This document shows positions 1 to 16,359 of a stretch of DNA of 19,930 bases, one piece after another. A model generated the notes under the pieces. That model saw only the letters and a list, made by a program, of their open reading frames with translations. It was not told the DNA's origin and ran no database searches. The stretch lies in IMG/VR virus record IMGVR_UViG_2529292724_000017, one strand, 5' to 3'. The stretch comes from a virus. Lineage: Duplodnaviria > Heunggongvirae > Uroviricota > Caudoviricetes. Position 1 is the stretch's first letter. Each line of letters opens with the position of its first letter. The position numbers were made by a program, and so were the translations under genes.

Positions 1-288
1 TTACCGCCGCAGCCGTTCCGGCTTCTTCCACTGGTAAGTATTTTTCGCGCTCTCCCTCCGTTGTTGAGAACGGCGACGGTATGCCAGCAACTCAAGGACT
101 CTTGTTCGTATGTTGCGCATATCCACGCCGTTAAGCTCAATACCGTCACGGAGCATCACCTCAGCCACCACACGCGCGTAATTTTCAGCGGTGACTGTAT
201 CCGGCTGCGCGGCCTGTTCGTCAGCCAACTGGCTGATTCCACCAGCACAGCGGATTAATCGCAGTATTTCAGATTCGGTCATTATCAT
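1..288 (-). CDS. hypothetical small basic protein (95 aa) immediately downstream of terS; possibly packaging-associated
   Basis: Complete ORF with stop at 1..3; start overlaps terS stop by 4 nt (ATGA coupling); basic C-terminus (RRRSQQRRESAK). No family recognised. Confidence 0.45.
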   Translation of the reverse strand: MIMTESEILRLIRCAGGISQLADEQAAQPDTVTAENYARVVAEVMLRDGIELNGVDMRNIRTRVLELLAYRRRSQQRRESAKNTYQWKKPERLRR

Positions 289-770
289 GCCTGTTTTGCG
301 ACCTCATTCACTACGTCATTTTTTACCATCCGGCTGATAATCTGATTACGCAAATCGTCAATAATTGACTGCACTCTGTTTACTGCCATCGGTTTAAGCC
401 CGGCATCACGTGCCAGAATATTGGGGAGTTTTGCCAGTTCCTCGCTTACGATTTCCCCCCATATAGCCATCTCTTTTCGCACATCATCGGCGGGTATGAG
501 TTGCGCCGTTTCCTGTTCGAACCTGAGGCGCTCACGTTCGGACTGATACCAGGCCTTACGGTCATGTGGCTCCATTTCTTCCAGTGATGCCGGAACGGGA
601 AGATCAAGAAAACAGGTCAGAATGTCAGTCACCCGATAGAGTTTTAGCTTGTCATGCCCTCCGGCTGGCTGGATGTTTTTCAGCCTTGCCGCCGCAGTCT
701 GACGACATATTCCCGCTATCGCCGCCAGTTGATTAATGTTCAGCATCAGATTTTTCAGTTCTCGATCCAT
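285..770 (-). CDS. terminase small subunit, lambda Nu1-like (N-terminal winged-HTH DNA-binding domain)
   Basis: N-terminus MDRELKNLMLNINQLAAIAGICRQTAAARLKNIQP...YRVTDIL resembles lambda Nu1 as recalled (KKQLADIFGASIRTIQNWQEQGMP...YDSAAVIKWY); later ERERLRFEQE resembles Nu1 ERHRLTRAQAD. Start placed at the internal ATG (Met30 of the track ORF, whose own start at 857 is TTG). Confidence 0.6.
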   Translation of the reverse strand: MDRELKNLMLNINQLAAIAGICRQTAAARLKNIQPAGGHDKLKLYRVTDILTCFLDLPVPASLEEMEPHDRKAWYQSERERLRFEQETAQLIPADDVRKEMAIWGEIVSEELAKLPNILARDAGLKPMAVNRVQSIIDDLRNQIISRMVKNDVVNEVAKQA

Positions 771-922
771 ACCCGCTCCAGAATGTTTTAAACATGCATC
801 TTGCGAACAACTTTCAGAAGAGGTCAAAAAATGCGCTATATGTTGAGCATAAAACAAGCAAAATTAACATGCTAAAAATAAAAATACTTAAAATTCAATA
901 CAATGGAAAGATGATGATGACG

Positions 923-1022
923 AATGAAAATGCAAAAACTAGCCTTTTTCCGCGCCGCTCCCGCCCCGTGGCAGGTCACTACACCGGGAGGACCCGCAAA
1001 AAAAGGCGGCTATCGCCGCCCT
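923..1022 (-). promoter_or_regulatory. conserved ~100-bp element, copy 1, between capsid stop and terS; contains intrinsic-terminator-like hairpin (GGCGGC-tatc-GCCGCC plus T-run on minus strand, about 997..1021)
   Basis: Near-identical to 13777..13850 and related to 4568..4668; GC hairpin followed by T7 on the minus strand directly after the capsid stop. Confidence 0.5.
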
Positions 1023-1027
1023 TGTTG

Positions 1028-2629
1028 TCATGCTCCACTCGATTTCAGTAATCCGCGATAGTCGAGGGCCGCGACACCTGCATCTATGCGCACCTTCCAG
1101 GCGACGCCATCAACAGTAAATCCCTCCTGCTCCTCAAGATATGGCGTATCAATACCATCAAGATAAGCGACCTCTATCGTGTCCATCCCCTTCGCCGCTG
1201 CCACATACCACTCCTTGTTATTGGCTTTATCAAGACGCGGCTCGACGATAACCTCTGCCATATCTTTCACCACGTTAATGATGCCGGGGTTCTGATTGAT
1301 AGTGCCTCCACCATCAATCGGAAAGAGTGATGACGATGACAGAATGGCGCGATGTGCGGCAGACTCCAGCGCAGCAGGGACCAGAACAAAAGCGGGGGTA
1401 ATATTCAGGGAGTCGCCGTTGCCATCCTCCTGTAATCGCATCAGCTTACGGGCTTCGTTAAGCCCCTCCATGTCCATATCCTTCGCAATAAGATTTTTAT
1501 GATCGGCATGGAATAACGCTTTACCATCCGTAAATTTGCCGTTGCTGGTTAACAGAAGATAAACCAGATTACCTACTGTTCTGGCGGCCGCACGCCCCAT
1601 CGCCATGGGGATTGTAGTTAACTGGGTCAGGTCATCGTTGATAATGGCCTGACGGGTAACAGAAAAAATATTACCGTATGTGGCCAGCGCAATAGGTACA
1701 CCTTTATCGCTGGTGGTGATGTATTTATATTCCGCACCTTCCGGTACTTTATCCAGCTTTGAAAAACCATTCAGACCAACGCGCTTTGCTTCATGAAAGT
1801 TTGAAAGCGATCCGGTACACGTCCATTTCTGGAACGTTTCGCCGCTGTCCTGCCAGCCTTTCAGCACTGATTTTTCAGCACCACCAGCCAGAATATGAGA
1901 AAAATCGCTGCTGCTGTGTGTGAAAGCTGCATTAACGACCTGCGAGCGATTTAAAAAATTGCCAACACTGATACCACGATCAGTTAGTGATGCCTGGGCC
2001 ATTTCAAAAAGGCTCATCATCGCGTAAGGATTTCCCCGCTCTGGGCGTTCATACCCGAGACGAGAATAAAGCCCCTGACGAATTGCATCGCCTGTTATGT
2101 TCCCGTTACCGGCATAAATATGAGTCGGGATATTTTTATTGGATGGCGTGGACTCGCGCCCCAGCTCGTTCAACAACTTTTCACGGGCCATCTCCGGTGT
2201 ACATGATGCATCCTCCAGGCACGCCATTTTGATCCCGTCGTAACGACTGCCGAACAGGCTAAACACTTCACTTATTCCGTTGATGCGCTTCTGTTCATTA
2301 CCAGCAATATTTGCCGCTCCCTGTGGCGGTGTAATCATTCCTTTAATGGTTTCCGGCATATGTAAAAAATCTCCTGTGCGTTTCGATTCAATTCGCGCCA
2401 TTACTCTGACGGATGGCAACAATTCATCAGCAAAACCGTGCTTAAGGCATTCTTTCCCATCCATCCAGGTTTCATCCTCCAGCATGGCGGTAATTTCCTG
2501 TGCTGATTTGCCCGTTTTTCTGGCATAAGCAGGGATTAACACGGTTTCCACCTTATCCAGCAAATCAGCATAATCACGCATATCGCCAGCATTTCCGCCA
2601 GAGATCCCCCACGGTTTATGGATCATCAT
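1028..2629 (-). pseudogene. ClpP-like prohead protease / HK97-like major capsid fusion, 3' portion only (gene interrupted by nested element)
   Basis: Colinear with the intact 638-aa paralog (4671..6587) from MMIHKPWGISGG onward; homology stops exactly at the 12-bp repeat 2618..2629; the first six codons of the track ORF lie in insert DNA. Confidence 0.75.
2618..2629. repeat. 12-bp direct repeat ATGGATCATCAT, left copy (putative att core / junction)
   Basis: Identical 12-mer at 12935..12946; capsid homology ends and begins exactly at the two copies. Confidence 0.65.
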
Positions 2630-2696
2630 GCAATACATTGAAATCATCCTACTGATAAATAAGATTAAAAATCACAATACAGATACGTTTGAGCTT

Positions 2697-2721
2697 CATT
2701 GCAATACGCATTGCAATACAC
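2697..2721. repeat. tandem repeat cattGCAATACgcattGCAATACAc (arm-type-like sites) near left junction; GCAATACA also at 2630..2637
   Basis: Same motif tandemly repeated at 12784..12807 immediately upstream of the integrase start. Confidence 0.5.
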
Positions 2722-2965
2722 GGTTGCTGGGTGATTTCAAAAGATGAATGCTGCGAAGGATGGAAATTTGGGAACTAGGTGGTGAATAGCACAACAAAAA
2801 ATCAGAATTCTACTAGCTTAAAATGATGCAAAAAGCATTCGTGGCATCGCAAGCGCTGTACAATTCGTTCTATAATGAAGAAAATTTCTAACAGACTTTA
2901 TCATTCAAAGGTGGAGGAGATGACAGCAATGCAACATGCATCACGCTCATACTTGAATTGTAAAG

Positions 2966-3010
2966 CTATCGTTAGAATCACAGCCTTTTTGTTCCGCTGA
3001 TCTAACGATA
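2966..3010. promoter_or_regulatory. perfect 10-bp inverted repeat TATCGTTAGA / TCTAACGATA with ~25-bp spacer, about 60 bp upstream of the cargo operon
   Basis: Seen directly; AT-rich intergenic region preceding ORF 3070. Confidence 0.3.
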
Positions 3011-3069
3011 AAACTAGTGGTAAAAGGTATATTTTTTAATTTTTCAGACGCTGGCGCGGGGTAATTAAA

Positions 3070-3372
3070 ATGAAATTTGTAAATATACGGTCATCCGAGT
3101 TGCCTGAAATAGATACCTTTGTAAAAGAATGTATCAACCAAGGACAATGGACTCTTTTCAAGGCCGAGAAGGGTGCAGTTAATGATAATAAAGTTGCTTT
3201 TTTTCTAAAGGCTGGCAAAGATTTCTTTGCATTAAATAACAGAGGAAGTGTTATCTCTGTATTTCAATCATTAGATTATAATCTTGAAATGAATGAGGTA
3301 ATTCATTTTTCAGATATTCCTAAACCTGAATCGTTGAGCAATATTGCTAGCTTAGGATTTGCTAGAGTTTAA
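3070..3372 (+). CDS. hypothetical protein (100 aa), first gene of AT-rich two-gene cargo cassette
   Basis: ORF in AT-rich block; 18-nt gap to the next gene, which has a good SD; no family recognised. Confidence 0.55.
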   Translation: MKFVNIRSSELPEIDTFVKECINQGQWTLFKAEKGAVNDNKVAFFLKAGKDFFALNNRGSVISVFQSLDYNLEMNEVIHFSDIPKPESLSNIASLGFARV

Positions 3373-3390
3373 TATATAAGGATATGTACG

Positions 3391-4281
3391 ATGGGATTAA
3401 TATCTGGAAATACACATTGGGTATTATTTTTACCTTGTGAGCACCAACCAGAAGATCGCCATGTTCAAGATTTAGTTCATGGCGTCTTTTGCTTAGAATC
3501 CTCAGGTATACAGCCATCTAATATTAGCATATATATTGATGGCCAAAATAGAGCCAACTTTAATAAGTTAATTTCGATTGCAACCCAACATAATTATACT
3601 ATCAAGCCTACATCTGAATTTTTCACCGACTGCGATACAAATAGTTATGAAAATCTAGTTATGTTTGTGACCGGACACGGAAGTATGAATGGTTTGGACT
3701 CTGCGCCGATCATAACCCCATACCGTTTATTGGACAGGTTAAAAAACACTCCTGTTCTCAAGCAAGCAATCGTTTATCTTGGTCAATGTTTCGCTGGTGT
3801 TTTCAACTACTTACCTGCTGGGCAGCGTAAGAGAGGTGAAGATGCCGACCCCGATGTCATTCTTATCGGGGCTACGAGTCTTCATGAAAGTTTGAGTAAT
3901 CCAACAACGGAAAATATTAATGGTATAGATTTTCCTTGGGTTGCAAATCAATTTTTATATCATGTATTTAAGTGGATATCATCCCCGAATGATATCGATG
4001 GGGATGGAAAACATACAGTAATTGACTCTTATAAGTATGCTGGAATCTCATCAAACATGACCAATCGTAGAATGAAGATAGGTTCTTTTGTAGCTTCGGT
4101 AGACTTGCATGAGCAATGGAATACTGCAAAAAAAGATCATGAAGCTAACTTGGCTGATCCACAAAAACTACTCCGTTATAGAGCATTAGATCAGCAATAC
4201 TATGAAAAACTGAACATTAACTATATTCATCAAGAGTGCTGGATATTAAATTCTGTACCTGCACAATCTGTTGAATTCTAA
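3391..4281 (+). CDS. caspase-like (clan CD cysteine peptidase fold) protein, 296 aa
   Basis: Hydrophobic strand then His-Gly (LVMFVTGHGS, H96) and hydrophobic strand then Gln-Cys (AIVYLGQCFAG, C133) about 37 residues apart, the pattern of caspase/clan CD catalytic dyads; SD AAGGA 8 nt upstream; EF-hand-like loop DIDGDGKHTVID at residues 201..212. Confidence 0.6.
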   Translation: MGLISGNTHWVLFLPCEHQPEDRHVQDLVHGVFCLESSGIQPSNISIYIDGQNRANFNKLISIATQHNYTIKPTSEFFTDCDTNSYENLVMFVTGHGSMNGLDSAPIITPYRLLDRLKNTPVLKQAIVYLGQCFAGVFNYLPAGQRKRGEDADPDVILIGATSLHESLSNPTTENINGIDFPWVANQFLYHVFKWISSPNDIDGDGKHTVIDSYKYAGISSNMTNRRMKIGSFVASVDLHEQWNTAKKDHEANLADPQKLLRYRALDQQYYEKLNINYIHQECWILNSVPAQSVEF

Positions 4282-4285
4282 TCCT

Positions 4286-4456
4286 TTACTTTTTTGAATA
4301 GATTGCTGCAAGTGCCGTTTTGAGGTCGTAATTTCGGCACTTGCAACTGCAACCAGAAATAGGGCGAACGTTTGACAAACGTTTAGCTATAGTCTGCCGA
4401 TGAAATCCAGTCACTTCCGCCAACTCACTTAAATTTAGAACTATCTTTTTCATCAT
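4286..4456 (-). pseudogene. truncated Nu1-like terS remnant (56 aa, DNA-binding domain only)
   Basis: Not in the supplied ORF track (below its length cutoff); translated by hand from the minus strand as MMKKIVLNLSELAEVTGFHRQTIAKRLSNVRPISGCSCKCRNYDLKTALAAIYSKK, which matches the N-terminal HTH region of the 285..770 product and Nu1; about a third the length of the full gene. Confidence 0.5.
4307..4345. other. perfect 11-bp inverted repeat TGCAAGTGCCG / CGGCACTTGCA (17-nt spacer) between convergent genes
   Basis: Seen directly; lies just 3' of the cargo operon stop and inside the terS remnant; no flanking T-run. Confidence 0.35.
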
Positions 4457-4567
4457 AATTACCCTTCAGATGTCGAACAAATAACATACAATCCATCATC
4501 TTTTCCACTTTTATAAAGTTTTACCTAATAAAATTCAGTTAGTTAGCGAATGATGATGATGTCTATA

Positions 4568-4668
4568 AAATTCAAAAACTAGCCGTTTCCCGCGATGCCG
4601 CCGCCCCGTGGCAGGCATCCCCGCCGGGAGTACCTTTTAAAAAAGGGCAGCATCTGCCGCCCTCCTGT
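4568..4668 (-). promoter_or_regulatory. conserved element, copy 2 (diverged), between capsid stop and truncated terS; terminator-like hairpin GGCAG-cat-CTGCC plus T6 on the minus strand, about 4638..4664
   Basis: Shares the aaaaactagcc...ccgccccgtggcagg...ccgggag core with copies 1 and 3. Confidence 0.45.
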
Positions 4669-4670
4669 CG

Positions 4671-6587
4671 TCATGCCGCCCCGCTCGACTTCACCATGCC
4701 CCGATAATCCAGCGCCGCCACGCCAGCATCGATACGCACCTTCCATGCAATACCGTCCACAGTGAAGCCCTCCTGCTGTTCCAGATACGGCACGTCCATT
4801 CCATCCAGATATGCCACCTCGATAGTGTCGGTGCCTTGCGCTGCAGTGACGTACCACTCCTTGTTGTTGGCCTTGTCCAGTCGCGGCTCAACCACTACCT
4901 GCGCCATATCCTTCACGACGTTGATAATGCCTGGGTTCTGGTTCAGCATACCGTTCTGGTCTACCGGGAACAGCGAAGATGATGACAGCACAGCTCGATT
5001 GGCTGCGCCTTCCAGCGCGGCAGGTACAAGGATATAGGCTGGGATAACATTAATAGGATCGCCGTTCGCATCCTCCTGCAGACGCATAGCCTTACGGGCC
5101 TCATTGAGTCCGTCTGTATCCATCCCTTTAGCGATGAGGTTTTTATGGTCGGCGTGGAACAACGCTTTACCATCTGTGAATTTGCTGTTGGCGGTCAGTT
5201 GCAGGTAGACCAGATTGCCAACCGTTCGTGCGGCGGCACGCCCCATTGCCTGTGGAATGGTCGTGAGCTGGCTCAGGTCATCGTTGATAATGGCCTGGCG
5301 TGTAACAGAGAAGATGTTTCCATAGGTGGCCAGCGCGATCGGCACCCCGCTGTCGCTGGTAGTGACATATTTGTATTCAGCACCTTCCGGGACTTTATCC
5401 AGTTCTGAAAAACCATTCAGACCGACACGTTTAGCCTCATGGAAATTCGACAGAGAACCGGTCTTTGTCCACTGCTGGAAAGTTTCCCCGCTGTTCTGCC
5501 AGCCAGTCAGCACCGACTTTTCAGCACCACCAGCCAGGATATGAGAGAAATCACTGGTGCTGTGCGTAAATGCCAGGTTCACGATCTGCGAGCGATTCCC
5601 GAAACCACTGACGCTGATACCACGATCCACCAGCGAAGCCTGCGCCATTTCAAACAGACTCATCATGGCGTAAGGGTTTCCCCTTTCGGCGCGTTCGTGA
5701 CCCAGACGGGCAAAAAGCCCCTGGCGGATAGCATCGCCGGTAATGTTGCCGTTACCTGCGTAAATGTGCGCGTTACTGGTTTTATCCGATGGGGTCGAGG
5801 TCTTACCCAGTGCCGTCAGCAGCATGTCTTTTGCTTTTTCAGGCGTGCAATCCACATCCTCCAGACACTGCATCTTGAGAGAATCATGCTTGCCGCCGAA
5901 CATGGCAAACAGATCCTTAATCTCGTTGATGCGGTTCTGTTCCGGTACAGCGCTACTGGTGGAACCTTTCGGGCTGGTGATCATCCCTTTAATTTCTTTT
6001 GGCATATGCTCAAAATCCTCAATTCGTTTTGACTCAATACAGGCCATTGCCCTGACGGCGGGTAACAATTCGTCAGCAAAACCCTGCGCTACACATTCGC
6101 GGCCATCCATCCATGTTTCATCCTCCAGCATTTCCGCCAGTGATTCGGCTGATTTTCCCGTTTTGCGTGCATATGCCGGGATCAAGACACTTTCGACTTT
6201 ATCCAGAAGTTCGGCGTAGTCGCGCATGTCGTTGGCGTTCCCACCAGAGATTCCCCACGGTTTGTGAATCATCATGAGTGCGTTTTCGGGCATAACGATA
6301 CGGTCGCCAGCCATTGCAATAACTGACGCCATAGACGCGGCGAGACCGTCGATCTGCACTGTAATTTTTGCCGGGTGTTTATTCAGAAGGTTATAGATAG
6401 CGATGCCGTCAAAAACATCGCCACCGGGTGAATGAATGTGCAGGCTGATATGGGAGATATCGCCTAGGGCTTTCAGGTCTTCGGAGAACTGCTGCGCCGT
6501 AATACCCCAGCCGCCGATCTCTTCGTAGATGCTGATATTGGCGCTGGTGCCATCGCTGGCCGCTTTGATGGTGTACCAGCCTTTCAT
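4671..6587 (-). CDS. prohead protease (ClpP-like, serine motif GLAASMAS) fused to HK97-like major capsid protein, 638 aa, intact
   Basis: N-terminal ClpP-like block (IHSPGGDVFDG...GLAASMASVIAMAG); long C-terminal region typical of major capsid proteins; colinear with both fragments of the interrupted paralog. Confidence 0.7.
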   Translation of the reverse strand: MKGWYTIKAASDGTSANISIYEEIGGWGITAQQFSEDLKALGDISHISLHIHSPGGDVFDGIAIYNLLNKHPAKITVQIDGLAASMASVIAMAGDRIVMPENALMMIHKPWGISGGNANDMRDYAELLDKVESVLIPAYARKTGKSAESLAEMLEDETWMDGRECVAQGFADELLPAVRAMACIESKRIEDFEHMPKEIKGMITSPKGSTSSAVPEQNRINEIKDLFAMFGGKHDSLKMQCLEDVDCTPEKAKDMLLTALGKTSTPSDKTSNAHIYAGNGNITGDAIRQGLFARLGHERAERGNPYAMMSLFEMAQASLVDRGISVSGFGNRSQIVNLAFTHSTSDFSHILAGGAEKSVLTGWQNSGETFQQWTKTGSLSNFHEAKRVGLNGFSELDKVPEGAEYKYVTTSDSGVPIALATYGNIFSVTRQAIINDDLSQLTTIPQAMGRAAARTVGNLVYLQLTANSKFTDGKALFHADHKNLIAKGMDTDGLNEARKAMRLQEDANGDPINVIPAYILVPAALEGAANRAVLSSSSLFPVDQNGMLNQNPGIINVVKDMAQVVVEPRLDKANNKEWYVTAAQGTDTIEVAYLDGMDVPYLEQQEGFTVDGIAWKVRIDAGVAALDYRGMVKSSGAA

Positions 6588-6796
6588 TTTTCCCCTTCCG
6601 TTACAGCGAAGCCATTTTCATCAAGCCATGCGTTGACTGCGTGCCGGACTACCTGTGCCACTCCGGGCAATGGCTGGACAGGAAGATTTTTCAGATGATC
6701 GTTGCGGTATTGCTTAAGGCGTACAACGGTTTGCGCGTCCAGATGTACGGAGCCGCCTTTAGTCTCGCCAGTGTTTAAATCGTTAATGTCACTCAT
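6584..6796 (-). CDS. small conserved protein (70 aa) translationally coupled to the protease-capsid gene
   Basis: Homolog of 13258..13464 (MS.INDLNTG...GGSVHLDAQTV.RLKQYR...PLPGVAQ.VRHAVN.WL..NGFA); ATG at 6794..6796 with SD GAGGA; 4-nt overlap with the capsid start. Confidence 0.6.
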   Translation of the reverse strand: MSDINDLNTGETKGGSVHLDAQTVVRLKQYRNDHLKNLPVQPLPGVAQVVRHAVNAWLDENGFAVTEGEK

Positions 6797-6941
6797 GATG
6801 TCCTCTACTGTATAAGTAAACAGGTTATGATGATTGATCACCAAAAGTGGTAAGTGAACAATTTTTTATCTGAAAAATAGATTTATGATGAAAAAAAATT
6901 TTTGTATGGTCTTAGATTGGAATAAACAGAAAGGTTAAAAA
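6797..6941 (-). promoter_or_regulatory. putative promoter region of the small-protein/capsid operon, with conserved TTACCACTTTT box
   Basis: Boxes aaaagtggtaa and aaaaatagatt recur at 13500..13550 upstream of the paralogous operon. Confidence 0.3.
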
Positions 6942-7655
6942 ATGGATCTCACTCGTAATGACGAACTCCTTTTGAATGATGCAGCTAGACGCTCATTTCG
7001 GGATATGGCAGACCAGGATTATCTCTCAGCTCGTCTGTGTTATAAGCACAAATTGAATTTTCAATTTTTATGGCTTTCGCAACAAGCCGTAGAGAAATAT
7101 ATTAAAGCGATTTTACTTTATAATAGAGTTCCAGTATTAAAATTAAATCACAATTTAAACAAAGGGCTGGCAAAGATTAAAGAAATCCCATATCTTGAAT
7201 TAGACCTAGATGTAAAAAGTGAGCGATTCATAGATTATCTCAATGAGCAGGGCCCAAATAGATACTTCCAAAACACTATGTATACCGAAGGCTTTGAAAT
7301 TATAACCTTGGATAGAACCATCTGGGAATTAAGAAGATACTGCAAGCCACTAAACTACTCAATTACTAACCCAAAAGGTGAAGTGATAGAAATGTTAGAA
7401 CATGAATTGAGTAGCATAAAAAATTCGAAGTCGAGGCCTTATCATACGTTCAAACTATTTGGAGGTTACTTAGAAAAAAGATTAAAAGATAATAAATTCA
7501 ATCAGGGCGACATACTTACATGGAAAAATTTATTTTTTGGAAGAAATAAAAAAAATGCAATTAGAATTGGAAGATCAATGCATGTAACTCATCCAACTCA
7601 TTATATGTACCCAAATGCAACGGAAATGCTCAGTCGTTTCTTTAAAATAAAATAA
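6942..7655 (+). CDS. HEPN-domain protein (237 aa), single-gene AT-rich cargo
   Basis: N-terminal region matches the HEPN pattern as recalled: helix, then SQQAVEKYIKAILL, then NHNLNKGL, then ...NRYF (compare hQQAvEKalKAll ... tHdL ... RYP); SD AAAGG; opposite strand to backbone. Confidence 0.5.
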   Translation: MDLTRNDELLLNDAARRSFRDMADQDYLSARLCYKHKLNFQFLWLSQQAVEKYIKAILLYNRVPVLKLNHNLNKGLAKIKEIPYLELDLDVKSERFIDYLNEQGPNRYFQNTMYTEGFEIITLDRTIWELRRYCKPLNYSITNPKGEVIEMLEHELSSIKNSKSRPYHTFKLFGGYLEKRLKDNKFNQGDILTWKNLFFGRNKKNAIRIGRSMHVTHPTHYMYPNATEMLSRFFKIK

Positions 7656-7743
7656 TTACATTCCAATTTTATTTACCGCTGTTAAATAAGTAAGGTATAT
7701 CTTTATTTATCGACATTGATAATCATGAAAGAGTATATCTTTT

Positions 7744-7960
7744 TTGCCGCACCTAGCGCATTTCTCACCGCACTTTCATCCCGCGCACTTAGGTGCGCAA
7801 TCCAACATGCACCGTACAGCCATTAAAACCAGTAATGGGGCGGGTTTGCAGGTGATTAATGCCAAACCGCGCACTTTCTTCGTATATACATGGAAAAAGT
7901 GCGGCAAGTGTATGTTTTATGAGCATTTCGCGCATCACGCGCATTTCTTGCCGCACTTTT
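7744..7960. repeat. iteron-type origin region: repeats of (T)TGCCGCAC / CGCACTTT in both orientations plus palindrome GCGCACTTAGGTGCGC
   Basis: Five or more copies within ~220 bp immediately downstream of the replication gene ending at 7965. Confidence 0.5.
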
Positions 7961-7964
7961 CAGG

Positions 7965-9374
7965 TTAAATTATCGTGATATCTCCTGAATCATCGATAAA
8001 GATAATATTCTCCCTAACGAGTTTATCAAGCCAGCGTTTAAAACCTTTGCGGCCGTTCTCTCCAAACAGAGTGGTAATATCATCACGTATAACAGAGACA
8101 TTACACGGTTCACCTTTGGCTTTTCGGCTCCGGATTGACTGCCAGAGTGCAGCGTGGTTCCCAGTCAGGTGCTTGATATCAGCAAGTTCCGGATCAGGTT
8201 CTCGTGCCTCTCGTGGCAGGTCCTGCACCACCAGCGACGAAATAAGCTCACCATCACGATCTGTGAACAATTCGATCGGACGCAGATCGAATGCGGCCTG
8301 TTTCGGCTCCTCCGCATCTTTCATCTTCGTACAGGTCAGGATTATCGCCCCACCATCCCCCTCGCGCCGGACATTGAACTCTGCATCGAGCGCAGCCCTG
8401 AAAGCACTGGAACCACGTGCGCCTTTGGTATCGTCTTTTCCTGAATGATGCACCACCAGCAACGTGGCGCCAGTCTCACGCTTGATGACGTCGCAGCCTT
8501 CAATAAACGCCCCCATGTCACGAGCATCGTTTTCATCGTTACCACCAAAGCACCGCGCTAGAGTATCTATGACAATCAGGCGAACCGGCTGCCCCGTTTT
8601 GGACTTAACGTCACGCGCAGCTTTGATCATCTCCTGCATTTCCTCACGGCGAACCGGGAAAACCGGACGGTTTACCAGATACAGATTATTTAGTTTCACA
8701 CCATGTTTTTTCTCCCACGCCTTTATTCGCCGCGGAACGCCAATACCACCTTCACCTACTACGTACATCACAGCGCCGGCTGATACCGACTTCCCCGCCC
8801 ACTTCATCCCGGCTGCAACGTGACAAGCCCAGGACACCGCCAGAAAACTTTTATACGAACCGCTCGGGCCGTAGATACTGCTCAGGCTGTTAGCGGGAAG
8901 ATAACTTTTTAACGTGTAATCCTGCTCCTGATCGTACCCATCAGAGCCCACGCTTAAAGGAAGGCTGTGCCGCAGTGACTCCTCTCGCACAGAGACTTCA
9001 ACCTGTTCACGCAGACGAGAAAGATATTCCCTCCAGTCCTCAGGCTCATGGTCGGGGATTCCTTTATACAATTTGGCATCCTGCACGCCAGCCAGCGCCA
9101 GCTTTTCAGCAATGTTATTAATCTGGATAGGCTTTATATTCCCTGCCAGGTAAATCCGCACGGCACGACGGCCATCATCCACAATGCGCAGGTTATCCAG
9201 CTCTGCCAGTTGTTTTGGCCCAAGGTAAACAGGAGGAGTGGTATCTTCGGCAATCTGTTTACCAAGCCCCTCTTCCCAACCCTTCGCATGGGCGTATGCT
9301 TCTGACCCGGCAAAAATAACTGCCTCCGTGAATTTTTCTTTTGGCAGGTGTTTCAGATTCGGTGCGTTTTTCAT
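7965..9374 (-). CDS. replication initiator: primase-associated N-terminal domain fused to RepA/DnaB-like RecA-fold ATPase (469 aa)
   Basis: Walker A GPSGSYKS and Walker B-like LIVIDTL; first ~125 aa shared with the 14246..16063 product. Confidence 0.65.
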   Translation of the reverse strand: MKNAPNLKHLPKEKFTEAVIFAGSEAYAHAKGWEEGLGKQIAEDTTPPVYLGPKQLAELDNLRIVDDGRRAVRIYLAGNIKPIQINNIAEKLALAGVQDAKLYKGIPDHEPEDWREYLSRLREQVEVSVREESLRHSLPLSVGSDGYDQEQDYTLKSYLPANSLSSIYGPSGSYKSFLAVSWACHVAAGMKWAGKSVSAGAVMYVVGEGGIGVPRRIKAWEKKHGVKLNNLYLVNRPVFPVRREEMQEMIKAARDVKSKTGQPVRLIVIDTLARCFGGNDENDARDMGAFIEGCDVIKRETGATLLVVHHSGKDDTKGARGSSAFRAALDAEFNVRREGDGGAIILTCTKMKDAEEPKQAAFDLRPIELFTDRDGELISSLVVQDLPREAREPDPELADIKHLTGNHAALWQSIRSRKAKGEPCNVSVIRDDITTLFGENGRKGFKRWLDKLVRENIIFIDDSGDITII

Positions 9375-9694
9375 TTCAGCCCCTTATCCCATCCGTCAGA
9401 TCCAACACTCAGCGGCAGAGAAGAGCGCAGAGCAGCGATTTTTTTACGCACGTTTTCTTTTACGGTCTCCTGCCACTCCCTGCTTTCCTCAGGGAGATAA
9501 ATAAATTCTTTTCGGAACCGGTACTCAGAAAAAATACACTCATGTGAATACCCATCCCGGACATACGTAATACGGCTATCCGTTATGCATGTGACAGTAA
9601 TTTTTTCTCCGCGAGAATCTTTCCAGCGACTGTTAAGCTCGATTTTTGGTTGAGCGATGCCCTCAAGCTGAACCTGATTGAATTTTTTAATCAT
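9371..9694 (-). CDS. conserved hypothetical protein (107 aa) translationally coupled to the replication gene
   Basis: Homolog of 16060..16359 (shared block TV..I...R.Y..RDGYS); 4-nt overlap with downstream start. Confidence 0.55.
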   Translation of the reverse strand: MIKKFNQVQLEGIAQPKIELNSRWKDSRGEKITVTCITDSRITYVRDGYSHECIFSEYRFRKEFIYLPEESREWQETVKENVRKKIAALRSSLPLSVGSDGWDKGLK

Positions 9695-9698
9695 GAAT

Positions 9699-9878
9699 TT
9701 ATTCCTTGTCGGTAGCCGTTAAACCGTATGCTTCAGCAGCCTGACGAACTGCCTGGATAAAACCTTCCGGTGTGGCCACGATTTCGTCCGGACGAAGGCG
9801 GCGCTCTGTAACCTGACCGTTTTTAACCGTCACCAGTACGCGGATCTCGTAATCAGCAGGTAAGGCGGAGTTATCCAT
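9699..9878 (-). CDS. hypothetical small protein (59 aa)
   Basis: Internal ATG of track ORF 9699..10004, overlapping the stop of the upstream Ash-like gene by 8 nt; clean composition ([16 protein letters not shown]...). Confidence 0.4.
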
Positions 9879-10158
9879 GGCGCACCTCCATTGGCACAGC
9901 TTCATTGCTGTAAGGATCGCTACCCAAGATGCTCCATAGGGTGCGATGTTCAGGATCCATAAACGACACTGAGAGCGGGCTTTCTGTTCGGATTTTGGCG
10001 GCAAAGGTCAAGTCCCAGCCGCAGAACTTTGCACGGGCAGTATCTTCAGTGTCTGCAATGGTGCGCAGAACTATCGGGAGACAAGAGTGACCTCGCGGCG
10101 TGCCAAGGAATAGCCATGTAAATTTTGGGCGAGTTTGGGTATGCTGTTGATCAGCCAT
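9871..10158 (-). CDS. Ash/Icd-like small protein typical of P4-type elements (95 aa)
   Basis: [12 protein letters not shown]...[17 protein letters not shown] resembles the KFTW(R/L)F...E.EAR pattern of Ash/Icd-like proteins as recalled; ATG at 10156..10158 with SD GAGGT; first gene of the replication operon. Confidence 0.45.
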
Positions 10159-10190
10159 AACTGTTACCTCAACTAACGGTTTGTGGTTAG

Positions 10191-10235
10191 ACGTCCCGTG
10201 AGTGGTTCCAAGCACTTCCGGGACGTTGCTTTTTT
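10191..10235 (+). terminator. conserved hairpin ACGTCCCG-(20 nt)-CGGGACGT followed by TGCTTTTTT, terminator-like on the plus strand
   Basis: Paralogous hairpin at 16919..16952 has ACGCCCCG/CGGGGCGT, a compensatory base-pair change; both sit ~40 nt upstream of an Ash-like start. Confidence 0.45.
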
Positions 10236-10251
10236 CACGTCAAGCGTGATA

Positions 10252-10296
10252 ACGTACGTACGTAATAGCAACATCCTATGAGGTTACGTACGTACA
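10252..10296. promoter_or_regulatory. two palindromic operator-like sites (ACGTACGTACGT and TACGTACGTACA) flanking the promoter of the RHH gene
   Basis: Two near-identical palindromes ~33 bp apart; the second overlaps the RHH start codon; region lies between divergent genes. Confidence 0.45.
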
Positions 10297-10487
10297 TGTC
10301 AACAATAAAACGAGATAAAACACCCAAAGGAGAGGGCTTGTCTCCGACATTCCAAATCCGAATAAGTCCTGAATTGCGCCAGCAGATGAATGAAGCTGCT
10401 GAGCGTGAGGGAGTAAGTCTTGGTAATTGGCTTAAAGGTCTGGCTAGAAATGAACTTATTAAGCAAGGAATTGAACCTAAAGGTTAG
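10296..10487 (+). CDS. ribbon-helix-helix (Arc/CopG/HicB-type) DNA-binding protein, candidate repressor of the inner element
   Basis: FQIRISPELRQQMNEAAEREGVSLGNWLKGLARNEL fits a beta-strand plus two helices RHH; divergent from the replication operon; start placed at the second ATG (track ORF begins 10278). Confidence 0.55.
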   Translation: MSTIKRDKTPKGEGLSPTFQIRISPELRQQMNEAAEREGVSLGNWLKGLARNELIKQGIEPKG

Positions 10488-10540
10488 TTTTCACAAGCAC
10501 TCTTTGATTTTTTCAGTAAAAATTAAATTAAGGAAATTCT

Positions 10541-11251
10541 ATGGATGATTTATATACACCATCTGAATATTTTATGTTCGTAGAGAAATTTGATCATTAC
10601 TTCCCACGAAAAAGCCCTTTTAACTCATTATTATTCGAGTTCAATTATAGATTAGAAGATATAGTTGTTTTTCATCGCTTTGTTATCAACACCTATTCAA
10701 AAAATAAAAAAGCAATTGATGTACAATATAATAAATTTAATTTTCTTGATGATAAACAAAAAAATTCCCTTTCTGATGACGAGTATGAAGCGTATCAACT
10801 CAGGTTTGCAAGGCATATGGAATACATTAACCATCAAACTGATTTGAATGAAAAAGCGTCTTACATTGCTAACGATAGTGTCGTTATAAACTTATGGGCC
10901 ATGAATGAACAATATATGACTAGAGGATTGGCCAACCTAATATCTCAAAAAGAAAATAAAAATTTAAATGAAGTTAAAACGCCTTACAAATGGGATACAA
11001 TCAAAAGTAAATTCCTGTCATATGGAATCAACTTTGAGACATTGCCATCTTATGATGACATTAATGAATGTAGAGTACTGAATAATAAAATAAAACATCT
11101 GAACATAGTAGATTCTGGTTTAGAAGTTTTCCCTCCCTTCAAAGGTAAGCTTAACGAATCACTTACTGGCATGGCCTTTCCTCTTCAAAAATATATCATA
11201 GGCTCTCATCACTTTATAGGAATGCTATTAGAAGAGTGCTCATTAAAATAA
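10541..11251 (+). CDS. hypothetical protein (236 aa), AT-rich cargo downstream of the RHH regulator
   Basis: SD AAGGAA; 53-nt gap after the RHH gene with no obvious terminator; no family recognised. Confidence 0.55.
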   Translation: MDDLYTPSEYFMFVEKFDHYFPRKSPFNSLLFEFNYRLEDIVVFHRFVINTYSKNKKAIDVQYNKFNFLDDKQKNSLSDDEYEAYQLRFARHMEYINHQTDLNEKASYIANDSVVINLWAMNEQYMTRGLANLISQKENKNLNEVKTPYKWDTIKSKFLSYGINFETLPSYDDINECRVLNNKIKHLNIVDSGLEVFPPFKGKLNESLTGMAFPLQKYIIGSHHFIGMLLEECSLK

Positions 11252-11297
11252 ACGCATGGCAACGTATAATTTATCGCTTAATACGTTGCCATATCTC

Positions 11298-11543
11298 TCA
11301 TTTATTTTTATCGAACCAATCTCCTTTAATCCAAGCTTGCATCTCTGAGAGCCGGTAAGCAACTGCTGACGGCCCAATTTTGATTCGCTTAGGAAATTTT
11401 CCTTCCTGTTCCATGCGCCAGCGCGTTGAGTTAGACAACGTAGTCATAGCCCGGCATTCAGGTTCGCGAATCATTCTGTCAAGGTCAGGCATGTACTGGA
11501 GATCTTCTTTTTTCACAACGGATAACATAGCCATATCAGGCAC
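11298..11543 (-). CDS. alpA: AlpA-family small DNA-binding protein (transcriptional regulator/excisionase-like)
   Basis: IREPECRAMTTLSNSTRWRMEQEGKFPKRIKIGPSAVAYRLSEMQAWI matches the AlpA HTH pattern; SD AAGGAG; start overlaps the integrase stop. Confidence 0.65.
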   Translation of the reverse strand: MPDMAMLSVVKKEDLQYMPDLDRMIREPECRAMTTLSNSTRWRMEQEGKFPKRIKIGPSAVAYRLSEMQAWIKGDWFDKNK

Positions 11544-12771
11544 TCCTTTTCTTAATTACTTTTACTGTATTTTCTTCACCCACCAGCCCATCAAGGTAGT
11601 CAACCCATCGGTCCAGTGCTTCTTGCTTTTGAGGGATATACTTGCTGCGGTTATAGACTCCGGCCACGCCCTTTATGGTATGCCCCAGCAGCTGCTCTAC
11701 GACCATAAAATCAACGCCCATATCGTTAAGGCTTGTCGAGAACGTTCGTCTCAAATCATGTAATGACCAGCGTTTTTCATGTTTCAGAGAGATAAAGTTT
11801 GTGCATCCCATCGTACTGACGGTTGAATCAGATTTCAGTTCGCCAAATATGTAGCCTCTCCTTTTAGTCTCTTCGTGCAGGTTTACGATCCACTGGCGCA
11901 TTTTTTGAGGAACGGGGCGAATAATTTCTTCGCCGTTTTTACTGTGCTCTTTAGGTACTGTCCAAATCCACTTATCGAAATCCCACTCATCCCATGTAGA
12001 TAAACGCGCCTCACTCAGCCTGCAGCCAAACACGAGACACAAAATCGCCATCCTTTTTTTGTAATTCATTACACGGGTTTTGCCTTTACCATGAAAGTAC
12101 ACTCCCCACAGATCGGCGACGTAGCTTTCCTCAAGTAGCCGCTCTCTCTTGTTCTGATACTTACCGATATCACCAGGGCTCAAATCATCAAGCACATTGC
12201 ACCGCACATACTGGCGCACCCGGCAGTATTTGAAGATCTGCTTTAACTCAATCAGCATTGCAGCAGACTGAACCGGCGCGATTTTCTTTATGCGGTCGAA
12301 GCACTTGATCCAGTCTGACAGACCGCATTTCTCGACAGGAAACCCGCCGATGTAGGGAAAAATGTATCTCTCATAACGGCGATAGAGCCGTAAAGTCTCT
12401 TTGCGCTTTTCCCTGGCATAGTTATCAAACCAGTAATCGATAGCGTTCTTCACAGTTACTGGAGTGAACAGGTTCTCTTTGGTGAGTTTGTTCTCTATTC
12501 GTGGGTCGAGTCCCTGAGATAGCCATGCCCGGCACTCGTCCCTTTTCTCTCTGGCCTGTTTAAGGGTCATATCTGGATACTTGCCTAACGTCATCCAGAC
12601 GGGGGCGCTTTGTCGGCCGGAATGTCTGAAGAAATACACAAAGCTCACAGTGCCACTAACGCTCACTCTGACAGACAGTCCACGACCATCTGCCACCATC
12701 TTTTGACGCGGCTGGGGTTTACCATGTAAGGCCTTTAACGCCTTGTCGCTTAACTTGTTCTCGCCCGCCAT
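11536..12771 (-). CDS. int: tyrosine site-specific integrase, P4-type (411 aa)
   Basis: Length and motifs of phage integrases (C-terminal LHDLRRTF, LLGH, then Y in VYNRSKY); paralog at 18701..19930. Confidence 0.8.
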   Translation of the reverse strand: MAGENKLSDKALKALHGKPQPRQKMVADGRGLSVRVSVSGTVSFVYFFRHSGRQSAPVWMTLGKYPDMTLKQAREKRDECRAWLSQGLDPRIENKLTKENLFTPVTVKNAIDYWFDNYAREKRKETLRLYRRYERYIFPYIGGFPVEKCGLSDWIKCFDRIKKIAPVQSAAMLIELKQIFKYCRVRQYVRCNVLDDLSPGDIGKYQNKRERLLEESYVADLWGVYFHGKGKTRVMNYKKRMAILCLVFGCRLSEARLSTWDEWDFDKWIWTVPKEHSKNGEEIIRPVPQKMRQWIVNLHEETKRRGYIFGELKSDSTVSTMGCTNFISLKHEKRWSLHDLRRTFSTSLNDMGVDFMVVEQLLGHTIKGVAGVYNRSKYIPQKQEALDRWVDYLDGLVGEENTVKVIKKRSA

Positions 12772-12783
12772 AAAACCTCATTC

Positions 12784-12807
12784 TGCAATACACATTGCAA
12801 TACACAC
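12784..12807. repeat. tandem repeat TGCAATACAcatTGCAATACAcac immediately upstream of the integrase start
   Basis: Same motif as 2697..2721 at the other end of the inner element. Confidence 0.5.
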
Positions 12808-12934
12808 TTAACTGCAACGCCGAAAAACAGTAGAAAAGCAATGCAAACAACACCTCTTCTTTCTTCATAATTAACAATAAGTTAATGAATGAATACGGTT
12901 CTTCATGCGTACCCATGAGGTAGTGTGAAGGATA

Positions 12935-12946
12935 ATGGATCATCAT
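12935..12946. repeat. 12-bp direct repeat ATGGATCATCAT, right copy (putative att core / junction)
   Basis: Identical to 2618..2629. Confidence 0.65.
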
Positions 12947-13562: not shown

Positions 13563-13589
13563 ACACAAAAAAGCCGGAGAAAATCCGGC
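13563..13589 (-). terminator. intrinsic-terminator-like hairpin GCCGGA-gaaaa-TCCGGC followed by T6 on the minus strand
   Basis: Seen directly. Confidence 0.4.
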
Positions 13590-13776
13590 ATAAATACCCC
13601 GCCATCTGAACACGTTTTGACACTGGCAACTCCACCTGGCAGGTGAAAAACAGATTTATTTATATATTTCAATTAATTGCAAGCTGGTCTAATGACAGGG
13701 AGAAAAAAATATTGTACAGGTGAAAACAGAAATAATTTTTAATTATCAATAAATTATCAAACATGCTGCCGCCGCC

Positions 13777-13873
13777 ATGAAAATGCAAAAACCAGCCTTT
13801 TTCCGCGACGCTCCCGCCCCGTGGCAGGTCACTACACCGGGAGGACCCATAAAAAAGCCGGATTGCTCCGGCT
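13777..13873 (-). promoter_or_regulatory. conserved element, copy 3 (near-identical to copy 1 over ~75 bp) with terminator-like hairpin GCCGGAgcaaTCCGGC plus T6 on the minus strand (13850..13873)
   Basis: Direct-repeat copy lying upstream of the small-protein/capsid module rather than downstream of the capsid gene. Confidence 0.45.
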
Positions 13874-14005: not shown

Positions 14006-14232
14006 TCACCTGTTCACCTTTTGATATTTTCTCTTTTAATTCATAATGTTAAGGGGTGAACAGTTTCACAAAAACTATTCACCAACTGTTCACCACTGTT
14101 CACCCTTGAAGCTCAATAAACAATCAAAAAGGTGAACAGTGAATAGTTTGGTGAACAGTTCATAAATAACTGCTCACCCTATAATATACTGATATAAAAG
14201 ATATTTATGACAGGGTGAACAGTGGTGAACAG
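14006..14232. repeat. iteron-type replication origin: eight or more copies of GGTGAACAG / CTGTTCACC in both orientations with AT-rich spacers
   Basis: Copies near 14009, 14055, 14086, 14096, 14131, 14151, 14214 and 14224; immediately downstream of the primase-helicase gene. Confidence 0.65.
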
Positions 14233-14245
14233 TTATTCCATAAGT

Positions 14246-16063
14246 TTAATTTTTGCTATCGTCATTAGTGACCGATACACATGATGGCATCCAGTCTTCT
14301 GATTCCTCCGTCAGTGTCACGTTTGAACGCAAACCGTGCTTCGTTTTCCGTTTCATATACTCCCTGCCATATTCCGCCATTGCCCCCGGCATATCTTTAC
14401 CGAAGCGCGTCAGTGTTACAGGTTTACCAAACCCATGTGCCCTCATATAAGCCAGATAGGCATGATAGAGATACCTGCGTGGGCTGAATGGCACAATTTC
14501 AGCATTACCCACTAACAGGCCATCACACATTACCGACGCCATGAGATAGCCGCAGAAGTCCACCAGCGAATCCCCCTCTCGCTTTATCGCCAGTGCTTCT
14601 TCAGATTTCTGCTGCTCATATAACAGGCGTCTGGCTTCGTCCTGGTCAGCAAACCGTGTAAGCAGATGGCGAATCACTACCGCCAGCTCACCTTCTATTT
14701 TTTCCGCCAGCATTGGATCACGTTCGTTCTCCGGTACAACTTCCGAAAAATTGAATATCACCCGACGACGTGAGATCCCCCCGCTGCGGTCACTGAATGA
14801 CATGGCGTTATTGTTAACCGCCAGCACTACTGCCGGAATACGCGTTGAGTAGGGGGCTTTGTGTTTCGGGTCAATTGCCACCTTGTCACCGCCTGTAATA
14901 GCCTTAATCCCTGCCCCATCACCAGCGTAGCGGGTCATATCCGGCATGATAATCAGCGAAAAGCCAACCACTAACGCGCGTTCCCTTGCATCTTCCAGCG
15001 CCTTCATGCTTGCCGATACTGTGTTGGCCTTACCCGCCAGCATGGTGCAAATCTCCGCCATCACGCTTTTACCACTTCCCCCTGGACCTGTTACCTCAAT
15101 GAATAACTGCCAGTCGTACCGGTTCGCCAGCACCATGAATAATGCAGCCAGTACGCGATCCGCCTTGCGGTCATTCTCAGCCACCGAACGGCGTAACCAC
15201 TTCCAGAAATTCGGCGCATGTGTTGCCAGCGTTTCCCCCTCTGCTGGTGGGCTGAAAGGTAATTCACTGGCAATTAACAACCAGTCGTTTTTGTTATGCT
15301 CCCGAAAATTACCTGTTCTGGTATCAAATACCCCGTTACTGAATCCAATCAGGTTACGGGCTGTATTCCCCATTACAGGCAAACTTAACTTCATGGTATC
15401 GACCGCCGATTTAATGGCGTTCTGCGAATAGCTGATCTCCGCATCAATGAAAATCTGTGCCATAGCTCGCTGTAATTCTTTATCCTGTACTGGCTCCCAT
15501 ACAACGCCGTTGTAATGGTGAACAGTGTCAGAGTCAGCATGAATCGCCAGTTCACCGCCATAATGTGCCAGGAGAACTTCGCCGCGTTGACTTGCTCCCA
15601 TCTGGTTAAGCGCCAGTGATGAAGCGTTATCGTCTTTTACCCGCTCTTTTTTCTTTACAGGCAGTTCAACTACCTTTTTCTTTTCCGCCTGCTCTGCCCG
15701 TTCACGTTCCAGATATTCGCGCCAGTTCTCCCGTTTCTGGCTGTGCATTCCTTCAGGATAATAATCAGCATCCCTGACACCTGCCGCTGCCAGTTTCTGC
15801 CCGATGGTATTAACAAGTCCCGGACGCAATAACCCCGCCTGGTAGAGACGCACGCGATAGCGTCCGTCTGGTACGATTTGCAGGTTGTCCAGTTCGGCAA
15901 GTTGTTGCTCTCCAAGCCAGACAGGTGGCACGTTATCGCCAGCCAGTCGCCCGTCCTGTTCCTGCCACTGCTTCGCATGTGCCCACGCATCACTACCCGC
16001 AAAAATGATGACTTCCGTCATTTTGTCACGCGGTTGGTGTTTTAAATTTGGCGCTTTTTTCAT
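14246..16063 (-). CDS. primase-helicase replication protein (P4 alpha / D5-like, SF3 helicase Walker A VTGPGGSGKS), about 605 aa
   Basis: N-terminal domain shared with the 7965..9374 product; central primase-like region; Walker A and DEAD-like motifs; start placed at MKKAPNLKH (second Met), overlapping the upstream stop as ATGA. Confidence 0.7.
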   Translation of the reverse strand: MKKAPNLKHQPRDKMTEVIIFAGSDAWAHAKQWQEQDGRLAGDNVPPVWLGEQQLAELDNLQIVPDGRYRVRLYQAGLLRPGLVNTIGQKLAAAGVRDADYYPEGMHSQKRENWREYLERERAEQAEKKKVVELPVKKKERVKDDNASSLALNQMGASQRGEVLLAHYGGELAIHADSDTVHHYNGVVWEPVQDKELQRAMAQIFIDAEISYSQNAIKSAVDTMKLSLPVMGNTARNLIGFSNGVFDTRTGNFREHNKNDWLLIASELPFSPPAEGETLATHAPNFWKWLRRSVAENDRKADRVLAALFMVLANRYDWQLFIEVTGPGGSGKSVMAEICTMLAGKANTVSASMKALEDARERALVVGFSLIIMPDMTRYAGDGAGIKAITGGDKVAIDPKHKAPYSTRIPAVVLAVNNNAMSFSDRSGGISRRRVIFNFSEVVPENERDPMLAEKIEGELAVVIRHLLTRFADQDEARRLLYEQQKSEEALAIKREGDSLVDFCGYLMASVMCDGLLVGNAEIVPFSPRRYLYHAYLAYMRAHGFGKPVTLTRFGKDMPGAMAEYGREYMKRKTKHGLRSNVTLTEESEDWMPSCVSVTNDDSKN

Positions 16064-16359
16064 TTCTGCTCTCTCCACGCGGCAATCATGTTTTTCAGTT
16101 CCTGTAGTTTTTTATCCACATCCACACGTGACACATGGTTATTTCTGGAAGGCGGGATTTCCCGCCGGAATCTGCTAATAAAGATCTCCACGTTCAGCGA
16201 GCTATGAAATGAATAGCCATCACGAATAAAGTACACACGGTCAAACATTATCGATTTTACTGTTACTCTGTTGCCGTTCTTATCCCGATAAATAGCGCCG
16301 GGGATAATTTTGGGATGTGCATAACCGCTGGCAGTCAAGCCAGATAAATATGTTCTCAT
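16060..16359 (-). CDS. conserved hypothetical protein (99 aa) translationally coupled to the primase
   Basis: Homolog of 9371..9694. Confidence 0.55.
   Translation of the reverse strand: MRTYLSGLTASGYAHPKIIPGAIYRDKNGNRVTVKSIMFDRVYFIRDGYSFHSSLNVEIFISRFRREIPPSRNNHVSRVDVDKKLQELKNMIAAWREQK

Follow-up and report, generated by a model that had tools for sequence, protein, structure and literature searches.

The three copies of a GC-rich repeat that lie in one orientation in the window (the whole 19,930-nucleotide stretch of DNA analysed here) are very probably lambda-type cos sites, each comprising cosQ, cosN and the start of cosB, as far as can be judged from sequence. This assignment draws on sequence homology, on the register of the subsites, on gene context and on the positions at which related phage records start. 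It gives probable DNA ends and a probable packaging direction to two nested E. coli satellites, and it tells the cos part of the repeat apart from a terminator part. The cosQ-cosN core, common to many lambdoid phages and satellites, combined with swapped cosB modules, offers a sequence basis for the match between helper and element in packaging.

The window contains two phage satellites, one nested within the other, in an E. coli chromosome. Of these, the outer is a PICI-like satellite of ~10.3 kb that adjoins a tRNA(CAU) gene. Read along the minus strand, it consists of an integrase (18701-19930), a D5-type primase (14246-16078), GGTGAACAG iterons (14010-14232), copy 3 of the repeat, a 68-aa gene, a protease-capsid gene, copy 1, terS and a 95-aa gene. 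The iterons, of which there are about ten directly after the primase gene, are ori-like. A second satellite, also of ~10.3 kb and located at ~2630-12934, splits the ClpP-protease/capsid gene of the outer element and is flanked by a 12-nt direct repeat (ATGATGATCCAT, at 2618-2629 and 12935-12946). The same protease-capsid gene is uninterrupted in locus L022. The inner satellite encodes an integrase (11536-12771), a RepA helicase, a HEPN protein and its own protease-capsid fusion, and carries copy 2. Features of PICIs and of helper-embedded satellites (HES) are thus present, namely an integrase, a replication module with iterons, captured late genes, a size of ~10 kb and no tail or lysis genes. 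We considered and rejected a cf-PICI of the EcCIEDL933 type, which would encode a complete head and packaging set (capsid, protease, portal, connectors, HNH, TerS and TerL), as only the protease-capsid fusion, the 68-aa protein, TerS and the 95-aa protein are present, with no portal, TerL or HNH. For the 68-aa protein, no homology was found to the cdtI gene that follows terL.

An HES-invaded PICI in tRNA-Met, with attB within a CLP_protease gene, has already been described (Tommasini, Mageeney and Williams, bioRxiv 10.1101/2022.07.18.500453). These HES-invaded PICIs likewise have an outer PICI in a tRNA(CAU) gene and a ClpP-protease gene holding the helper-embedded-satellite attB, and the paper also notes a cos-bearing segment common to satellite and helper. 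The cos subsites and the dual-cos arrangement are not dissected there.

The repeat cores, of ~80 nt each in the minus-strand reading, lie at 924-1003 (copy 1), 4564-4643 (copy 2) and 13777-13856 (copy 3), as expected from the original prediction of three copies. Over 80 nt, identity to copy 1 is 95% for copy 3 and 74% for copy 2. The capsid and terS neighbours that had been proposed are also in place, as ClpP-protease/major-capsid fusions at 1028..2647 and 4671..6587 and a DUF1441 TerS at 285..770, all on the minus strand. So too is the predicted hairpin with a minus-strand T-run at each copy (1005-1020, 4646-4658 and 13857-13872). The parts of each copy are as follows, with slashes marking predicted nick positions.

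1005..1020, minus strand: copy 1, terminator hairpin of the outer protease-capsid gene (GGCGGC GATA GCCGCC), with its T-run at 998-1004; outside cos
989..995, minus strand: copy 1, cosQ GGGTCCT, the sequence found in lambda, located upstream of the predicted nick at a distance of 22 nt
953..968, minus strand: copy 1, cosN CG/GGGCGGGAGCGG/CG, with the predicted 12-nt 5' end at 955-966 and the predicted top-strand nick at 967/966
771..952, minus strand: copy 1, I2-like GGCTAGTTTTT and satellite-specific cosB, with (TCA)4 at bp 45-58; ends at the terS ATG, bp 197
285..770, minus strand: TerS of the outer satellite, DUF1441 / PHROG 141; its C-terminal half alone aligns with cdtI TerS
4646..4658, minus strand: copy 2, terminator hairpin of the inner protease-capsid gene, with its T-run at 4640-4645
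4593..4635, minus strand: copy 2, cosQ AGGTACT (4629-4635), 22 nt, then cosN CG/GGGCGGCGGCAT/CG, with the predicted cohesive end at 4595-4606
4286..4592, minus strand: copy 2, cosB with (CAT)4 and a 56-aa ORF (4286-4456) that corresponds to the N-terminal helix-turn-helix of TerS only
13857..13872, minus strand: copy 3, terminator hairpin GCCGGAGCAATCCGGC, with its T-run at 13851-13856; just downstream of the ori-like iterons
13806..13848, minus strand: copy 3, cosQ GGGTCCT (13842-13848), 22 nt, then cosN CG/GGGCGGGAGCGT/CG, with the predicted cohesive end at 13808-13819
13600..13805, minus strand: copy 3, helper-type cosB, ~94% identical to cdtI bp 13-194; a terminator (13573-13589) follows

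On the minus strand, every copy reads as cosQ, 22 nt, ACG/GGGCGG-NNNNNN/CGCGG and then GGCTAGTTTTT. The 14-mer CTGCCACGGGGCGG has exactly three occurrences, all on the minus strand and one in each copy; by chance, ~1 match would be expected even with three mismatches permitted. Both predicted nick positions are flanked by CG dinucleotides in all three copies (ACG/GGG.../CGCGG), and bp 1-6 of cosN are GGGCGG in the three copies and in lambda. The predicted cohesive ends, with cores ACG/GGGCGGGAGCGG/CG in copy 1, GGGCGGCGGCAT in copy 2 and GGGCGGGAGCGT in copy 3, differ from one another at bp 7-12 (GAGCGG, GAGCGT and CGGCAT). Copies 1 and 3 have cosQ GGGTCCT; copy 2 has the same layout with a 2-bp variant, AGGTACT, at the same distance from the nick.

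When aligned with lambda, using what we take to be the lambda cosQ coordinates, the core matches lambda cos subsite by subsite. The lambda row reads ACGGGTCCTTTCCGGTGATCCGACAGGTTACG/GGGCGGCGACCT/CGCGGGTTTTCGCTATTTATG and the copy 1 row reads GCGGGTCC-TCCCGGTGTAGTGACCTGCCACG/GGGCGGGAGCGG/CGCGGAAAAAGGCTAGTTTTTG. Common to copies 1 and 3 and lambda are cosQ GGGTCCT, the flanking CG pairs and an I2-like GCTA-TT-T, and the spacing from cosQ to the nick is 22 nt in the three copies versus 23 nt in lambda. The lambda cohesive end, GGGCGGCGACCT, had been given correctly in the original prediction. In a blastn search of lambda cos against the 19.9-kb window, the three copies rank as the best three matches and share one register. 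Given that their E-values (0.002, 0.36 and 1.3) are weak or marginal alone, the case for cos rests on register, bridging sequences and context. The distance from the cohesive end to the terS ATG is likewise similar, with the ATG at bp 197 in copy 1, 191 in lambda and 185 in cdtI.

The concept of a 7-bp cosQ in lambda-like cos sites has been published (PMC4669245), and in such sites bp 1-6, cosQ and the flanking CG are conserved and bp 7-12 are variable (Feiss and colleagues, PMC4669245). The copies share with the lambda-like cos group (lambda, 21, phi80, N15 and Gifsy-1; PMC4669245, PMC9026076) a 7-bp cosQ, a 12-nt end starting with GGGCGG, CG at both nicks, variation at bp 7-12, an I2-like segment and a terS gene ~190 bp downstream. 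In contrast, the cosB of the copies is unrelated to the lambda R sites, and the satellite TerS belongs to the DUF1441 family, with no BLAST similarity to lambda Nu1 detectable.

The element is also found in lambdoid phages, where it lies between the lysis genes (Rz) and terS (mEp460, Ayreon, VT1-Sakai, Stx phages and Fels-1, among others). The group formed by cdtI, mEp460, Ayreon and Tritos consists of lambdoid phages with a DUF1441 TerS, a gpA-like TerL and a ClpP-capsid fusion. Compared with the cdtI/mEp460 group, the satellites differ in having a terminator hairpin that abuts cosQ and in having no TerL gene following. In GenBank, the cdtI and Tritos phage records both start exactly at the base homologous to 13819, where the cohesive end of copy 3 is predicted to begin, although this start may itself have been set by homology. 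The cdtI record terminates in ...GGGTCCTTCCGGTGGGGTGGCCTGCCACG. The 12-nt end of copy 1 is identical to that of mEp460. We rejected the record ends of mEp460 and Ayreon as evidence for the position of cos, as these records were opened at terS by convention (PMC5764929). In the record of mEp460_4F5 (LR595868.1; L008 1-30 and the end of L009), the break lies 5 nt upstream of the predicted nick. With GGGCGGGAGCGCGG, this record is also 3 nt short of mEp460 in the cohesive-end region, probably through an assembly artefact at the physical ends.

A pattern scan of IMG/VR, in which CCACGGGGCGG and CGCGG were fixed, returned 103 homologous sites; bp 1-6 and the flanking CG are set by the search pattern, and their conservation cannot be judged from these sites. 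Both cosQ and GGCTAGTTTT lie outside the pattern and are largely conserved among the sites. The cohesive end varies at bp 7-12 only, which fits the published lambda-like cos pattern (PMC4669245). A DUF1441 TerS lies within ~200 nt downstream at most of the 103 sites that have enough flanking DNA. In the phage loci a gpA-like TerL comes next after TerS, and in the satellite loci a protease-capsid fusion lies upstream of cos. In three loci (L010, L019 and L111), a cdtI-type left half meets, at cosN, a right half whose sequence is that of lambda bp 13-45 (CGCGGGTTTTCGCTATTTATGAAAATTTTCCGG), so that cdtI-type and lambda-type cos are exchangeable at this point. The AGGTACT cosQ of copy 2 recurs at the standard spacing in 14 of 83 distinct sites, and in a few others it is shifted by 1-2 nt. 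Loci with this cosQ include L034, L035, L038, L080, L103 and L112, among others, and some of them are phage loci with TerS and TerL. The literature consulted states that cosQ shows no apparent natural variation. A literature search with the exact predicted cohesive-end 12-mers returned unrelated papers only.

Behind their common cosQ-cosN, the three copies have three different cosB modules. A short trinucleotide repeat is present in all cosB types at bp ~44-62, where R3 lies in lambda (window ~905-922, ~4545-4562 and ~13758-13776). This is (TCA)4 in copy 1, (CAT)4 in copy 2, (GGC)3 in copy 3 and cdtI, (CAC)4 in cos1 of the satellite EcCICFT073 (L133 37605-37622), CACCAC in the mEp460 type and (CTT)3 in lambda, at bp 55-70. 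The cosB modules of copies 1 and 2 differ from those of cdtI and mEp460, and no clear R-type repeats could be defined in either. The copy 1 type recurs in loci L022, L052, L055 and L090 together with a TerS that is 96-99% identical, and a related cosB is found in the phage-like locus L110, where TerS is 72% identical and TerL is also present. The outer terS likely starts at the ATG at 770, not at the TTG at 857. Its product aligns with cdtI TerS over the C-terminal ~80 residues only, at 46% identity. Thus, in satellite copy 1 versus cdtI, unrelated N-terminal DNA-binding domains of TerS match unrelated cosB modules.

Copy 3, which had been thought to lack the cohesive-end motif, has a real cosN (GGGCGGGAGCGT) and is the most phage-like of the three. 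A near-complete cdtI cos, its identity to the start of the cdtI record (bp 1-194) is ~94%, and it carries the entire cdtI cosB, up to the terS start of the phage. Copy 3 and cdtI share a match to the IHF consensus at bp 64-77 and two TTTTCACCTG repeats at bp 94-103 and 171-180. Copy 3 ends in what is left of the phage terS start (at ~bp 185), its first ~8 codons in mutated form, with no intact TerS adjoining; phage homology ceases after this remnant, and the second terminator (13573-13589) follows. On the plus strand, the cosB repeats of copy 3 (13640-13655 and 13717-13730) read CAGGTGAAAA(A)CAG and resemble the GGTGAACAG iterons.

The 56-aa ORF of copy 2 (4286-4456, minus strand; MMKKIVLNLSELAEVTGFHRQTIAKRL...) starts at ~bp 151 and matches PHROG 141 positions 13-63 only. 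It could be a shortened terS or encode a stand-alone cosB-binding protein. This ORF is absent from the RefSeq annotation.

From these sequences we infer how cleavage, the direction of packaging and the pairing of TerS proteins with copies would work. A lambdoid helper of the cdtI/mEp460 group would supply TerL, portal and tails. TerS on cosB would position the helper TerL at cosN, where two nicks would be made 12 bp apart. The top-strand nick (here in the minus strand) would fall after ...CCACG, at 967/966, 4607/4606 and 13820/13819, and nicking would leave the 5' overhangs GGGCGGGAGCGG, GGGCGGCGGCAT and GGGCGGGAGCGT in copies 1, 2 and 3, respectively. Packaging would proceed toward terS, that is, toward lower window coordinates, and would stop at the next cosQ-cosN. 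Because cosB differs, the copies are expected to answer to different TerS proteins. Copy 1 would pair with the TerS that the outer satellite itself encodes. As a complete cdtI-type helper cos in sequence, copy 3 should be usable by the helper terminase unaided, and any terminase of the cdtI/mEp460 group could terminate there. Copy 2 would be the cos of the inner satellite, of the helper-embedded type, whose TerS gene is cut down to a DNA-binding stub of 56 aa. Each of the three cores could act as a packaging stop signal. Points against reading the copies as cos are the 2-bp cosQ variant and shortened TerS gene of copy 2, the lack of an intact TerS beside copy 3, and the splitting of the outer satellite by the inner one.

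Precedent comes from EcCICFT073, in which cos sites have been experimentally tested (PMC6092414, PMC6739421), and PICIs with lambda-like cosQ/cosN, divergent cosB and two cos sites are in this sense already published. EcCICFT073 is a PICI with helper-like cosQ/cosN, a different cosB and two tested cos sites (PMC6092414, PMC6739421, PMC9026076). It is packaged through Rpp-TerS (PMC6092414, PMC6739421), and deleting cos2 raised its transfer (PMC6092414). In the CFT073 genome (L133), cos1 lies at 37555-37574 on the plus strand, ~100 bp upstream of the gene at the position published for rpp, and cos2 lies inverted at 38292-38311 on the minus strand. At cos1, which directly precedes the gene for the specificity protein, terminator and cosQ are joined as they are in copy 3. 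The cosB of cos2 has three CCGGACAT repeats and looks like a complete phage-type cosB. The two systems differ in arrangement, since in EcCICFT073 the inverted cos2 is ~740 bp beyond cos1 and the sites flank rppA, whereas here direct repeats surround the capsid gene. They also differ in that EcCICFT073 encodes Rpp and the outer satellite here a full TerS homologue. Considering the effect of the cos2 deletion, the variant cosQ and TerS stub of copy 2, and the lack of a TerS at copy 3, one or two of the copies may be dispensable or costly.

Before the insertion of the inner satellite, copy 3 and copy 1 were direct repeats ~2.7 kb apart around a capsid cassette. The earlier suggestion that two direct copies bracket the capsid module of the outer element is therefore correct, and the same arrangement is found in other satellites. 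Loci L022 and L090 have the same direct cos pair and the same capsid module. In L101 (1660-1679 and 4100-4119, minus strand), a direct cos pair surrounds a lambda E-like capsid protein and a decoration protein, and the same is seen in L061. The type of the upstream cosB differs by satellite, being cdtI-type here and mEp460-type in L061 and L101. A sibling of the outer satellite, L055 (IMG/VR UViG 2654587792_000035, 7341 nt; primase 99.7% and TerS 97% identical), has a single hybrid cos at 6371 and no capsid cassette. This hybrid combines the left flank of copy 3 with the cohesive end and cosB of copy 1, as would be expected if the two sites had recombined or had been cut by terminase and re-annealed. 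The arrangement of L055 is rare among complete genomes, and there is a small chance that it is an assembly artefact.

Only the recurring direct cos pair, in which a helper-type and a satellite-type site enclose a captured capsid gene, goes beyond published descriptions. The pair may be functional or may be just a scar of late-gene capture. It provides a lead on how satellites acquire helper late genes and on the benefit or cost of a second cos for transfer; neither point changes the current understanding of cos packaging. As a tentative proposal, to which we assign a low probability, the two direct sites could mark the points at which a mobile 'capsid cassette' is joined and at the same time give the satellite two packaging specificities, one through its own TerS and one through the helper TerS. 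Terminase cutting and the annealing of ends would graft onto a satellite a phage left arm (cosB-terS-...-head genes) that was later deleted down to the capsid gene, and the same route would excise the cassette to leave a capsid-less, single-cos sibling such as L055. Grafting and excision could both occur because the cohesive ends are common across the phage-satellite group. The downstream cos would then serve the satellite TerS and the upstream, helper-type cos the helper TerS. Consistent with this proposal, the upstream cos has a phage cosB and a terS remnant, the upstream cosB types vary, and two unrelated capsid modules are bracketed.

Alternatively, copy 3 and possibly copy 2 may be functionless relics of a captured and internally deleted phage left arm (cos-terS-...-head genes), such that only copy 1 is used in packaging. 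The dead phage terS remnant in copy 3 is what such a history would leave, and both the increased transfer of EcCICFT073 upon deletion of cos2 (PMC6092414) and the single hybrid cos of L055, without a capsid cassette, point the same way. We nevertheless suspect that this alternative is unlikely, as copy 3 retains cosQ, both CG pairs, bp 1-6 and a whole cosB that is ~94% identical to that of a live phage. Moreover, the copy 3 arrangement is present, at a coverage of at least 80%, in 162 of 5426 complete E. coli genomes, and the cos pair recurs around a different capsid module in L101. Given that termination in lambda requires cosQ-cosN alone and no matching cosB (PMC4669245), an intact core would hardly be inert.

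The hairpins, on the other hand, are ordinary terminators of the upstream operons and lie outside cos. In the satellites the T-run of a terminator abuts cosQ each time, namely in the three copies, in cos1 of EcCICFT073 and in L022, L052, L055, L061, L090 and L101. The sequences that had originally been put forward as the cohesive end, GGGCGGCGATAG in copy 1 and GGGCGGCAGATG in copy 2, are stems of these terminators; we rejected them as cosN, as the stem is different in copy 3 and absent from phages. A real hairpin with a minus-strand T-run directly after a gene or the ori region at each copy is what a plain intrinsic terminator would show, and the conserved DNA beside it could in principle be regulatory (a terS promoter or operator), with no role in packaging. 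This is highly improbable, because it is the core and not the hairpin that is conserved: no two of the three hairpins are alike, and the cos-core homologues in phages lack a hairpin altogether. Furthermore, the core corresponds to lambda cos at each subsite, and phage records start within it. No sigma-70-like promoter was flagged in the conserved element.

Least probable of all is that either strand encodes a structured or small RNA, which would suit a GC-rich, conserved, non-coding sequence adjoining a terminator, but Rfam gave no match at gathering thresholds (and chance-level matches only at E up to 10), single-sequence folds of both strands were unremarkable, with z-scores of -0.5 to -2.7, and the RNAalifold consensus over 30 diverse homologues reached -5.4 and -7.4 kcal/mol, with short weak helices only. 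The consensus contained no extended helix. Of the two possibilities first raised for this repeat, a cos-like site or a structured element, the former is supported and the latter is not. A small protein encoded on the plus strand (MKMQK...PAPWQ) was also rejected, as copy 2 has no start codon in frame and the differences between copies 1 and 3 are non-synonymous.

The inner satellite carries cargo genes on the opposite strand, at 3070-3372, 3391-4281 and 6942-7655 (all on the plus strand; the last encodes the HEPN-domain protein). No Pfam match was obtained for the 100-aa and 296-aa cargo proteins. These genes may be accessory or defence genes.

In phages, a palindrome, (GAT)GATAATCATTATC, lies just upstream of cosQ, as in L005 253-275 (lambda 48452-48474), in L131 ~970-990 (cdtI) and in many IMG/VR loci. 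It resembles a Fur box. In the satellites, the terminator hairpin occupies the position of this palindrome.
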